Source: Candidatus Uhrbacteria bacterium (GTDB taxonomy: Bacteria > Patescibacteriota > Patescibacteriia > UBA9934). Taken from it: DNA of 58,513 nt. Below, piece by piece: positions 17,744 through 22,002 of the stretch. The notes beneath the pieces are model-generated. The model searched no databases. It saw nothing but the letters and a program-made list of their open reading frames with translations, and was not told the origin of the DNA. Location: positions 1 to 58,513 of the forward strand of contig DOZH01000006.1 of NCBI GenBank assembly GCA_003518105.1, written 5' to 3'. Numbering within the stretch: the stretch's first letter is position 1; each line of letters begins with the position of its first letter. The position numbers and the translations under genes are program-made.

Positions 17744-19048
<1,305 letters not shown>

Positions 19049-19100
19049 AAATAATATTGACTTTTTAAGGTTTTATTGTTATGATGATCACATCACGAGG

Positions 19101-19142
19101 AAAAGAGTTCCTGAAGGGTTTCGTCCCGCTAGGAGCTCTTTT
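19101..19142 (-). terminator. hairpin overlapping the NYN stop codon
   Basis: AAAAGAGCTCCT...GGG-ACGAAA-CCC...AGGAACTCTTTT. Confidence 0.55.
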
Positions 19143-19662
19143 CATTTGTATGGTCATTTGTATGGTCATTTTTAGCGATTTTACTCTTAAGATCGTTCAT
19201 AAAGTGAAAGATGTTGTTTTCTGGTGGACAAAGTGTTTTCAAGAGAACGGAATGCTTTTGACGATTAGGAATGAGAACTTTTTCAAGCTTATTCTGTCCC
19301 ATGAGGTACTCGACAAGGCACCTGAAATCGCCGTCCCCCGTCACTATAACTGCTTTCTCATAATTCGAAAGTTCGATCATACTGTGCAGAACCAGCTCGG
19401 CATCGACGTTTCCTTTTATCGTTCCATCCTTTAATATCAGTGTCGGTTTAAAAATGCAGATAAATCCTGCTCGTTGTAAGAAATGATAAAGCTGTTCATT
19501 ACCTGTTTTATAGCCAATGAAAATAAAGGCCTGTGTCACTGAATATTTATCCTGGAGATATCGACGGAATTTTCGCATGTCCAAAATCCAGCCTTGGCTC
19601 TTGACCCCAAGATGCACATTTTGTGCATCGATAAATGCAAAGTTGTTCGGTTTTGGAGTCAT
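19129..19662 (-). CDS. NYN-domain (PIN-like) ribonuclease
   Basis: AFIDAQNV, KGNVDAELV, VIVTGDGDFRCL. Confidence 0.9.
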   Translation of the reverse strand: MTPKPNNFAFIDAQNVHLGVKSQGWILDMRKFRRYLQDKYSVTQAFIFIGYKTGNEQLYHFLQRAGFICIFKPTLILKDGTIKGNVDAELVLHSMIELSNYEKAVIVTGDGDFRCLVEYLMGQNKLEKVLIPNRQKHSVLLKTLCPPENNIFHFMNDLKSKIAKNDHTNDHTNEKSS

Positions 19663-19676
19663 ATTTGTATTATTCC

Positions 19677-19753
19677 AACTGTCCGATTATTTCGGACAGT
19701 TCATTTCAACTGGTGACAAATTGTCACCAGTTGGTCACAGAACGTGACCAACT
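19677..19753. repeat. cluster of three perfect palindromes upstream of NYN
   Basis: AACTGTCCGA/TCGGACAGTT (10 bp), CAACTGGTGACAA/TTGTCACCAGTTG (13 bp), CAGTTGGTCAC/GTGACCAACTG (11 bp). Confidence 0.8.
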
Positions 19754-19948
19754 GAAAATAAAAATTCACCCGTACAGAACAACCATCGATGATGATTATC
19801 TTGTAAGGGCGAATCTTAGATAAGATCGCGGTGCCACCTCACTTTAGGCTTTTCAGCAGTTGTGCGCGCTGGTCGTTAAGCAGCGAGAGGTGTGTCAGGC
19901 CTGGTTAGACTATAGCTGAAGAGGAGGACGCTGACAAGCGGTCGCGCT

Positions 19949-20400
19949 AAAACACAAAATCCCCAAAATGGGGATATGTGCCACAGTGAAGAGACTAGCG
20001 GGACCGCCATCGGATTCAGGCGATTGAAGTCGTTGCTCAGCCAGTTGAGGTTGACGTAGACCCGACCCTCGTGGCGGTAGACGTACCGGACCACGCGGTT
20101 GCCATCCGAGTTGCGAATCTGCGCACTACACCATCCAGGACACCGCCCCTCGAATAGCTCTCAGCTGCTCTTGAGGTTGAATATTATGTGCGATCTCGGA
20201 GCCCGGCACAGTGTGAGCAGTTCGCAAACCGCTCGGCAAGGGCTCACTAATCGACCAGTGTAGTGCACCGAGTAATCTTCATGTTAGAGATGGCCCAAGA
20301 GACGCTGTCGTCAACCGTAATCAACGCCATTCTGCCCAAGTGCGCGCACCGAGTCAGGTAGGGGGAAGCCGTAACCGCCCCCGTATTCACCCGACCTACC
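19949..20400 (-). ncRNA. putative stand-alone TR-containing DGR RNA
   Basis: Bounded by the target-gene terminator and a 3' hairpin with U-rich tail (19949-19980); stem 20268-20258/20131-20121 closes just 5' of TR. Confidence 0.55.
19998..20118 (-). repeat. DGR template repeat (TR)
   Basis: 121 bp, 110/121 identical to VR; all 11 mismatches are TR adenines; 7 AAY codons and no A at any third codon position. Confidence 0.95.
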
Positions 20401-20413
20401 ATCATGTTACCAC

Positions 20414-20463
20414 AAAAAACGAAATGAGGATCCCGACACAGCTTGCGCAATGTGGGATCCTCA
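20414..20463 (-). terminator. intrinsic terminator after the DGR target gene
   Basis: TGAGGATCCC/GGGATCCTCA 10-bp stem followed by TTTCGTTTTTT. Confidence 0.75.
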
Positions 20464-20548
20464 ACGGAACGGGTTGGCTCGGGCCTGCCAGCAGGGCCTA
20501 AGGGCTAAGGGTCTGAGAGCTAAGAGTCTCAGGCTCAGAGCAAAGGCT

Positions 20549-21094
20549 CTAAGGGCTTACTCGCGGGACCGCCATCGGATACAGGCGATAGAAGTCGTCG
20601 CTCAGCCAGTAGAGGTTGACGTAGACCCGACCCCCGTGGCGGTAGACGCACCGGACCACGCGGTCGCCACCCGAGCGGCGAAAGACCGAGCCGCAGATGA
20701 CGTACTTGCCCTCCCAGCTGTCCTGGAAGAGGGTCGGATCCGCCTCGATGCGATCGATGACGTGACTCGACAGGATGACCGCGTGCTCGAGGAGCATGGC
20801 CTCGCCGCCGACCACACCCTTATCAATCTGTGTGGGGCAGAGCTGAACGTCGATCTTGGTGAGGTCGACTAGACCACGGAACAGGTTCTCGGGCTGCTCG
20901 GCCTCGTCGTAGGTGCAGCCAGCCGGGATGTTGGGCCTGCCCGAGCAGTCCACCAACACGGGGTTGACCCTGCCGATGAGGTAGCGGCTGAGCGCGGGCT
21001 GCTGGGCGATGGCCGCCAGATTCTCCGAGGTGCCGCCTTCGGCTGCAAAGGAAGCGAGGAAGACGTCGACATCAGCGGGGTTGAAGTTGGTCAT
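20549..21094 (-). CDS. DGR target (variable) protein, probable C-terminal C-type-lectin-fold VR
   Basis: 181 aa, GGAG Shine-Dalgarno; VR encodes FRRSGGDRVVRCVYRHGGRVYVNLYWLSDDFYRLYPMAVP. Confidence 0.9.
   Translation of the reverse strand: MTNFNPADVDVFLASFAAEGGTSENLAAIAQQPALSRYLIGRVNPVLVDCSGRPNIPAGCTYDEAEQPENLFRGLVDLTKIDVQLCPTQIDKGVVGGEAMLLEHAVILSSHVIDRIEADPTLFQDSWEGKYVICGSVFRRSGGDRVVRCVYRHGGRVYVNLYWLSDDFYRLYPMAVPRVSP
20563..20683 (-). repeat. DGR variable repeat (VR) ending in the IMH
   Basis: Aligns ungapped to TR; shared GC-rich 3' end CCGATGGCGGTCCCGC. Confidence 0.95.
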
Positions 21095-21147
21095 GATGAA
21101 CTCCGGGGGTAGTGAGTGGGGTGGATGAAAAGAAGTTGACGAAAAGT

Positions 21148-21176
21148 AGTATAGCAAAAAAATGGCCTTTTGTCAA
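21148..21176 (-). promoter_or_regulatory. sigma70 promoter of the DGR target
   Basis: TTGACA-17 bp-TATACT. Confidence 0.8.
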
Positions 21177-21213
21177 GCCATGGTGGCGATTATTTGGCTA
21201 AAATTGGCTTAAT

Positions 21214-22002
21214 TTATGGAGTTGTGGTGAGGGGTAAAATGCCGGTCCAGAAAGGTTGCGTCGGGTGGCCGGGGACGTGGTAAAGGACGGTGTCGTGGAC
21301 GCAGGAGGCCAGAGAGGCGACGTCGGCGCCTTTGAGGGGATAGCGGAAAAGGCCATCGTAAGAGCTGTCGCGAGCCAGGCGAAGGAGTTGAACCACCTCT
21401 TGGCGCAAGGGAGTGGCCAAGAACCACTCGCCAGGGTTTTTGGCGATGCAGGAGGAGCAGACCAGTCCCCCACGGCCGCCATGCCAACGGAAAGATAAGG
21501 GCACGATCTCCCCTTCACAACCAACGCAATGGTCCAGGGCAACGTTGTAGCCAAGTTGGCGCATTAAACGGAGAAGAAAGCCGCTCAGCAAAAAAGTGCT
21601 GCGGGTGGGGTGCAGAGATTCTTGAGAATTGAGAAAGTGGAGCCAGGTGGTCAGCTCGCCGTAGAGCACGGCGTCCTCCTGTTCTTCGTGCATGATTTTA
21701 TCGAGGAGGCCGAGCGAGGTGAGGACGAGCAGACGGTGGTCGATGTTGTCCGCCAGGCGTTTGAAAGCGTGCTTACGCTCGACGCCGATGACGGTGACGG
21801 AGTGTGCGCCGCGGATTATTTCGAGCTCGAGGATGGCGCAAGGTTCCAGGTGCGGGGCGAGTTTAGCGAGGGGCTTAGCGCCACCACGACCGAAGAACTC
21901 GAGCTTGCCGTGGCCGGGCGTCAAGGCGGAATAACGCCTGTCAGCTTCGCGCCAGGGTGAGACCGAAAGGATGATAGCTTCAGTCTTAATGCTCGCCCAC
22001 AT
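21214..22002 (-). CDS. recO: DNA repair protein RecO
   Basis: EAIILSVSPWREADR N-terminus, C-x2-C...C-x2-C zinc motif, SFRWHGGRGGLVC. Confidence 0.85.
   Translation of the reverse strand: MWASIKTEAIILSVSPWREADRRYSALTPGHGKLEFFGRGGAKPLAKLAPHLEPCAILELEIIRGAHSVTVIGVERKHAFKRLADNIDHRLLVLTSLGLLDKIMHEEQEDAVLYGELTTWLHFLNSQESLHPTRSTFLLSGFLLRLMRQLGYNVALDHCVGCEGEIVPLSFRWHGGRGGLVCSSCIAKNPGEWFLATPLRQEVVQLLRLARDSSYDGLFRYPLKGADVASLASCVHDTVLYHVPGHPTQPFWTGILPLTTTP

Follow-up and report, generated by a model that had tools for sequence, protein, structure and literature searches.

The stretch of DNA analysed here (the window) is the entire 58,513-nt contig DOZH01000006.1 (58.5 kb; hereafter C6) of a metagenome-assembled genome (MAG) of Candidatus Uhrbacteria from groundwater, which comprises 0.8 Mb in 13 contigs and is 85% complete. 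Between the genes encoding RecO and AsnRS it carries a compact cassette with the anatomy of one part of a diversity-generating retroelement (DGR): a target gene ending in a variable repeat (VR), followed by a template repeat (TR) embedded in a putative non-coding RNA gene, with no gene for a reverse transcriptase (RT) or an Avd protein. All features described below lie on the minus strand. The target promoter (21148–21176), located directly past the RecO terminator, consists of TTGACA, a 17-nt gap and TATACT with a TG extension, with 11 of 12 consensus matches; it is conserved in an orthologous cassette (L087, see below), and a promoter is found at the same site in the sister genomes. It is followed by the 181-codon target gene (20549–21094; ATG at 21094, stop at 20549–20551), which is a homolog of the target of a complete DGR on another contig (C10) of the same genome. 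Overlapping its end is a cluster of five CCYTWRG words within 59 nt, all on one strand (20494–20556), and the gene closes with an intrinsic terminator read from the sequence (20413–20462; GAGGATCCCACA ... TGTGTCGGGATCCTC, then a T run), which is 88% conserved in L087.

A preceding inspection of the window, made from the letters alone and referred to here as the sequence-only reading, had proposed a TR at 20118–19998 and a VR at 20683–20563. Realignment bore out this pair as ungapped over 121 nt, with the VR (20563–20683) forming the last 40 codons of the target (codons 142–181) and the TR (19998–20118) containing 24 adenines. A recount agreed with the earlier tallies in full: there are 11 mismatches, every one at a TR adenine (six A>G, four A>T and one A>C), so that 11 of the 24 adenines and none of the 97 other bases are changed, and the TR has seven AAY codons and no third-position A. 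The probability that 11 random mismatches would all land on the 24 adenines is approximately 2e-9, and all 11 changes fall at codon position 1 or 2. The same reading had placed the end of homology at a GC-rich sequence resembling the initiation of mutagenic homing (IMH) element; this sequence is present (20559–20578; CCGATGGCGGTCCCGC-G-AGT, the G being replaced by T in the TR copy), but the homology ends 3–4 nt further on, giving a total of 124 nt, and the extension includes one non-A difference, T in the TR and G in the VR (CCGC-T-AGT vs. CCGC-G-AGT).

The sequence-only reading had also found no RT or Avd gene in the window, and this absence was upheld by a Pfam RVT_1 search of the genome, which identified three RTs, on contigs C1, C8 and C10, and none on C6. 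Each of the three is part of a complete set with a bAvd-like gene, and the bAvd-like genes of the genome occur only beside these RTs; the RT and Avd open reading frames of all three sets are intact and match RVT_1 and bAvd. On the sense strand of the TR, the three complete DGRs share one layout, namely the target with its VR, a spacer of 359–413 nt, the TR, the bAvd-like gene on the opposite strand, and the RT. C6 has the first half of this layout, with a VR–TR spacer of 444 nt, and then ends. The proportion of TR adenines changed in C6 (46%) is comparable to that in the three RT-linked DGRs (45–66%), and its number of non-A mismatches, zero, is the lowest of the four loci (1, 3 and 7 in the RT-linked DGRs). 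The T/G difference at the end of homology also recurs in the C10 DGR, in the same CCGC-G/T-AGT context, while C8 has G/CTAGT. The locus therefore has an adenine-specific TR/VR pair, and its VR lies at the end of the coding sequence and is altered only at first and second codon positions, as expected of a DGR; it is without an RT adjoining the TR and without an Avd-type gene in the cassette. An RT remnant beside the TR was considered and rejected: a tblastn search with the three RTs and the three Avds gave nothing near the cassette (best E-value 0.16, at 39.4 kb), and only about 12 nt separate the U run that ends the TR-RNA gene from the next promoter. There is no room for a remnant because this promoter, which belongs to the NYN/AsnRS leader (19909–19937) and marks the outer boundary of the cassette, begins 12 nt past the U run, and from position 19920 on the sequence is homologous to that of sister genomes without the cassette.

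The spacers of the four loci, as well as those of DGRs of other families in the order, follow a common plan, in which CTTNG-like words, the target terminator and a TGnTAnnnT promoter are succeeded by a non-coding domain of approximately 260 nt, the TR, the motif GC-TAGTCTCTTCA, and a hairpin with a U run. In C6, an extended -10 promoter was recognized from alignments at 20404–20412 (TG-G-TAACAT), and TGnTAnnnT is found at the same place in C10 (TATACT), C8 (TATAAT), L087 (TACTAT) and other genomes. The 5′ domain of the predicted TR RNA (20266–20400) contains two tandem hairpins with GGYUAC(U)GG-type loops, followed by the conserved sequence AUGAAGAUUACUCGGUG. The inner domain (20119–20275), which includes a GUCGAUU/AGAUCGC stem and the motifs AUAAUAUUCAAC, UAUUCGAG and CUGGAUGGUG, is 85% identical to its C10 counterpart over 68 nt and 85% identical to that of L087. 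Strand a of a putative closing duplex (CAUGAAGA; 20276–20283) would pair with UCUUCA just past the TR, where the TR-side boundary (T-AGT) and strand a′ (UCUCUUCAC) occupy 19986–19997; the GC-TAGTCTCTTCA motif past the TR is common to C6, C10, C8 and most loci of the clade. A terminator hairpin (19949–19975; AUCCCCA-UUU-UGGGGAU, then a U run) follows; a hairpin occurs at this place past the TR in all loci, and that of L087 has compensatory changes. As read from these elements, the TR-RNA gene is thus self-contained, spans about 450 nt and has a promoter and a terminator of its own. Since C6 has all of the RNA-side and DNA-side parts seen in the complete DGRs (promoter, 5′ domain, closing duplex, boundary motif and hairpin), the cassette is complete on the RNA and DNA side and is without the two protein genes only.

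The first 135 nt of the non-coding domain fold as two tandem hairpins, in which 29 of 77 predicted pairs are compensatory among three sequences. A covariance model (R1) built from five sequences, including the C6 copy, retrieved 65 elements in 44 of 162 genomes of the order, with scores of 121.5 bits for C6 (a member of the model) and 104.6 bits for L087 (outside the model); the TR RNA of C1 is too divergent for an R1 match. In the alignment of 48 copies, which was fitted to the model's own structure so that the pairing counts lean towards that structure, 88.8% of cells are paired and both partners have changed in 35 of 37 pairs; the covariation score was 0.715, vs. 0.12–0.16 in controls with slid partners. 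A search of positions 18500–22000 against Rfam 15 gave no family match of any weight, and the TR-RNA domain is not in Rfam 15. To judge from the covariation, this 5′ domain genuinely folds as a structured RNA. The conserved AUGAAGA with which the hairpin region ends is predicted to pair with UCUUCA just past the TR, enclosing the inner domain and the TR, and other loci show matching double changes in this long-range duplex (CAUGAAAU/AUUUCAUG; AAAUGAAGC/GCUUCAUUU; AAUGAAUA/UAUUCAUU; UGAAAA/UUUUCA; CAGC/GCUG; CUUUUC/GAAAA; UGCCUGU/ACAGGCA; AGUACU/AGUACU). The proposed pairing rests on inspection of these compensatory variants; an automated comparison of cognate with non-cognate duplexes, which is noisy because the 3′ windows are poorly anchored, found the cognate duplex to be better in 24 of 42 pairs.

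The closest target homolog (66% identity) lies on a 1269-nt Logan contig, L087, from another sample. This contig aligns to positions 21177–19912 of C6 at 80% identity, covering the promoter, target, VR, post-VR element, terminator, TR-RNA gene and TR terminator, and includes approximately 35 nt leading into the next promoter, and thus the same RT-less junction. As the junction past the TR terminator is common to both, parsimony places the origin of the RT-less state before the split of C6 and L087. At fourfold-degenerate sites of the non-VR coding part the two are 62% identical (Jukes–Cantor distance, JC, 0.54), compared with 95% in the post-VR element (JC 0.05), 89% and 85% in the 5′ domain (JC 0.12–0.17) and 85% in the TR (JC 0.17); the RNA domain, the TR and the post-VR element have therefore diverged 3–10 times less than neutral sites. 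By this comparison, purifying selection has acted on the non-coding TR-RNA gene and on the post-VR element while the cassette was RT-less. An RNA gene of no use would be expected to change as fast as neutral sites.

A second line of evidence comes from the two repeats themselves. At 10 concerted sites, which are interleaved with the A-mismatch sites, TR and VR are identical within each lineage whereas C6 and L087 differ. Among the 91 sites at which neither template has an A, the orthologs differ at 10 sites between their TRs and at 12 between their VRs, while the TR and VR of the same lineage differ at none in C6 and at four in L087. Had the C6 TR drifted neutrally since the split, it should show 5–22 non-A mismatches to the VR, according to how much of the divergence is assigned to the C6 branch; zero were observed, which under neutral drift has a probability of 7e-3 to 3e-10. 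On these counts a neutrally drifting TR is rejected, and the alignments are most simply read as showing that adenine-mutagenic copying of the whole template went on in a cassette that was by then RT-less. As a separate observation, the TR of L087 (1069–1186 of that contig) has G or T at four positions that are A in the C6 TR, and at two of these T stands against G in its own VR; the L087 template itself may have been mutated at adenines.

The RT-less layout, which the sequence-only reading had suggested looking for in related genomes, was found not only in L087 but also in further genomes of the order. Among the 65 R1 elements, 43 lie 802–991 nt upstream of an RT and 22 have no RT nearby, although for seven of the latter a contig start prevents judgement. 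At least three further RT-less loci have an intact A-type TR/VR pair (G117:C18, G117:C69 and G067:C18), with four to five RT matches elsewhere in these genomes. One of them (L078, G117:C18) is a target/TR cassette located between the SecY and adenylate kinase genes, at the end of a ribosomal-protein gene cluster. At two other loci (L083, G050:C42; L084, G077:C6) only the 3′ parts of divergent avd and RT genes are left while the A-type TR/VR pair is still present, and these fragments are consistent with a single internal deletion at each. Several R1 loci are solo RNA domains; in one genome (G111) a solo TR-RNA gene lies 86 kb from the sole complete DGR. In another (L076, G064:C20:18708–21225), two R1 domains are arranged in tandem 1.9 kb apart, the first without a detectable TR/VR pair and the second in a DGR cut by the contig end. 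RT-less cassettes thus recur in the order, and decay happens too.

The sequence-only reading had left two explanations side by side: a cassette served in trans by an RT encoded elsewhere, or a recently disabled DGR. Its account of the anatomy stands, and the ortholog comparison favors the former explanation over the latter. We consider it probable that the C6 locus is a non-autonomous (“satellite”) DGR cassette, composed of a target with a C-terminal VR and a TR-RNA gene, for which RT and Avd are supplied in trans; trans supply would follow from copying having continued in the RT-less state. Under this reading, the TR RNA would be transcribed from its own extended -10 promoter and would fold into the double-hairpin 5′ domain, the inner domain, the AUGAAGA/UCUUCA duplex around the inner domain and the TR, and the final hairpin with its U run. 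An Avd–RT pair encoded elsewhere in the genome would then bind this RNA, and the likeliest sources are the DGRs on C10 and C8, given that their TR RNAs and that of C6 are members of one RNA family. The RT would copy the TR into adenine-mutagenized cDNA, and the cDNA would replace the VR, with guidance from the GC-rich end that both repeats share (CCGC-G-AGT) and perhaps also from the conserved post-VR element. Runs of CCYTWRG/CTTNG words comparable to that element occur directly past the VR in all DGRs of the clade (among them C10, C8, C1, L012, L014 and L016), and the cluster may be a DNA-side recognition element for retrohoming; a pattern scan for it gave 0 matches in metagenome contigs and 0 in genome contigs, in collections that may be without this genome's records. 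The identity of the serving RT, the roles of the RNA parts and of the post-VR element, and service at the present day are points that we infer.

Several observations weigh against trans service. In the hairpin region, C6 has only about 50% identity to C10 and to C8 (C10 and C8 are 61% identical there), so recognition by their RTs would depend on structure and loop motifs; an attempt to identify the helper RT from RNA similarity was rejected, as the C6 hairpin region is no closer to C10 and C8 than to elements of other genomes. The genome is incomplete, as noted above, and its contigs are grouped by binning and sample co-occurrence. Some of the concerted changes, at least, seem to date from the L087 branch. 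L087 itself looks partly decayed, with four to seven non-A mismatches and a TR without four of the adenines of the C6 TR, and a 99%-complete genome (L073/L088, G111:C5:316243–316590) has a solo 5′ domain with an A-rich TR and no VR. Since L087 shows decay and relatives hold both decayed DGRs and a solo TR-RNA gene, RT-less loci can be steps toward loss. A search for VR variants among assemblies found none: every assembly has the same VR, and the 90% protein cluster of the target is a single sequence. The TR pattern with every A replaced by N had 0 matches in metagenome contigs and no related loci were found in genome contigs, in both cases in a collection that may be without this genome's records.

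These points give some weight to the view that the cassette is a recently orphaned fossil, served in cis or in trans until recently, whose TR is no longer copied and whose decay has been too brief to show. The invariance among assemblies, the visible decay of L087, the solo TR-RNA gene and deletion-damaged DGRs of related genomes, and the truncated orthologous target without a TR in a sister species (G004) would all fit such a history. The targets of the three RT-linked DGRs, however, are equally invariant, each forming a single-sequence cluster, so that consensus invariance says nothing about activity. The RT-less junction is moreover common to a lineage with a neutral divergence of JC 0.54, and yet none of the 97 non-A positions is mismatched in C6; purifying selection acts on the RNA gene and the post-VR element, and intact candidate helper RT and Avd genes are present in the same genome. 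We therefore regard a fossil as unlikely, albeit the most serious of the alternatives. Gene conversion between the 121-nt repeats, with the adenine differences dating from the time of a complete DGR, could in principle have homogenized the repeats without any RT, being possible between direct repeats 565 nt apart, and concerted evolution alone is no proof of reverse transcription. Such conversion would, however, also erase the A-site differences or strip adenines from the TR, whereas the C6 TR retains its 24 adenines and seven AAY codons; the concerted sites lie amid the 11 retained A mismatches (site 49 beside 48; sites 7–8 between 5–6 and 12), and many tracts of a few bases each would be required, which makes this explanation very improbable. 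Least credible of all is an artefact of assembly or binning, in which avd and RT would truly adjoin the TR or the cassette would come from another organism. Assemblies frequently break at DGR repeats, contig ends hold many of the related elements, and the MAG is only 85% complete; nevertheless, an identical 6 kb region (RuvX, RecO, target, TR, NYN and AsnRS) is present at 100% in four independent assemblies from different samples (JGI, ENA and Logan), so the layout is not a misassembly. The flanking genes are housekeeping genes that are syntenic across seven sister genomes, and L087 has the same junction. The exact target protein is also present on eight contigs from several samples, and the C10 DGR, itself surrounded by housekeeping genes, was found in three cassette-bearing samples.

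As in the DGR of Bordetella phage BPP-1 (mtd-VR, avd, TR, Sp and brt), the C6 locus shows adenine-specific transfer from TR to VR, a VR at the 3′-end of the target, and a GC-rich end of homology at which TR and VR differ (a candidate counterpart of IMH vs. IMH*). The Bordetella template RNA requires flanking structure, including a duplex across the TR and an Avd-binding stem-loop directly past it (bioRxiv 10.1101/2023.10.23.563531), and the C6 terminator hairpin occupies the place of this stem-loop. According to Wu et al. (2018, PMC5758913), a unit of avd, TR and brt supplied on a plasmid can act in trans. Unlike BPP-1, C6 has no avd or RT in the locus, its large structured RNA lies 5′ of the TR rather than in a 140-nt spacer 3′ of it, and its TR RNA appears to be transcribed separately, as a short unit that has its own promoter and its own terminator. 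DGRs of the candidate phyla radiation (CPR)/Patescibacteria (the “CPR set” of PMC5758913; clade 2 of Roux et al., 2021, PMC8144416) share with C6 the host group and small single targets of unknown function, and their parent architecture is represented here by the three complete DGRs and the 43 RT-linked RNA elements of the order.

In remote-target DGRs (Treponema denticola, Legionella and Trichodesmium erythraeum), as proposed for C6, the RT acts on DNA far from its own gene; the Trichodesmium TR is an abundant non-coding RNA with a main transcript of 265 nt and its own promoter (PMC4143802). The remote VRs in these systems use the single TR next to the RT, whereas the C6 locus brings its own, different TR, so that one enzyme would have to accept several template RNAs. 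Trans service was also raised for incomplete DGR loci in Thiohalocapsa PB-PSB1 (Dore et al., 2024, PMC10907252); there, the clear trans cases are VRs that match the TR of another locus, and loci with their own TR were attributed to structural variants with an intact RT (PMC10907252), but no intact-RT variant of the C6 locus is seen across the four assemblies and the ortholog. Outside DGRs, the C6 cassette resembles a short interspersed element (SINE) by analogy only, as an RNA-coding module without an enzyme that would rely on an RT encoded elsewhere. SINEs and long interspersed elements (LINEs) form pairs in which a non-autonomous retroelement uses the RT of its partner and is recognized through RNA structure. 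Unlike a SINE, the C6 cassette would neither multiply nor insert anew and would rewrite one fixed 121-nt stretch of a host gene. A literature search for “orphan” or “non-autonomous” DGR cassettes found nothing closer than these systems.

Non-adjacent and remote targets have been described, but not TR cassettes without an RT (Wu et al., 2018, PMC5758913), and the survey by Roux et al. (2021, PMC8144416) also begins from the RT; because the search in such surveys starts at the RT gene, they cannot list RT-less TR/VR pairs, and a cassette with its own template and a borrowed enzyme escapes their catalogues. The covariation-supported RNA domain described here is new in that it allows TR-RNA genes of this CPR clade to be recognized without reference to the RT, and the comparison of C6 with L087 newly supports long-term function without a linked RT on evolutionary grounds. 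If trans service is correct, one RT–Avd pair would be programmable by several unrelated template RNAs, and the RNA rules for borrowing an RT could aid the design of multiplexed DGR-based mutagenesis tools. A wider picture, which we put forward tentatively and rate at a little short of an even chance, is that the CPR DGR is a split, modular system. Free-standing, relocatable modules of target and TR-RNA gene would occupy hot spots (RecO|AsnRS here; SecY|Adk in G117) and persist for long periods without an enzyme; one Avd–RT pair would read several template RNAs through a shared 5′ domain upstream of the TR, an arrangement permuted relative to the Bordetella DGR RNA; the post-VR CCYTWRG array would serve as a DNA address tag; and RT-anchored surveys would undercount targets.

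In DGRs the VR is displayed on a C-type lectin or Ig-like fold; the target protein here gave no match in Pfam and PDB sequence searches, and an AlphaFold model from a two-sequence alignment had a mean pLDDT (predicted local distance difference test) of 42 and was unusable. The surroundings of the gene were compared across the genus. The RecO–AsnRS leader gap (19949–21213; L028, L035–L040) is empty in G006 and G007, and holds only the NYN gene in G001, the truncated target homolog in the sister species G004, a small unrelated ORF in G003, and other inserts in G005 and G002, while the same promoter lies just past RecO in all compared variants of the gap. As its content differs between genomes, the gap is a hot spot of gene turnover within the genus, and the cassette sits there under a site-conserved promoter. 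The NYN/AsnRS leader on the far side (19706–19937) has its own promoter and is 82–94% conserved in the sister genomes G004 and G003. The word AAAGTGAGGTGGCACCGCGA within it is T-box-like, which is a tentative lead only, as Rfam gave no T-box match for the leader at E ≤ 1. Between the leader and AsnRS lies an NYN-domain gene (19129–19662), which occurs at this site only in G000 and G001. It was considered as a substitute for the RT and rejected, as it is located downstream of the AsnRS leader and is also present in G001, where the cassette is absent; the NYN gene is an insertion without relation to the missing RT.

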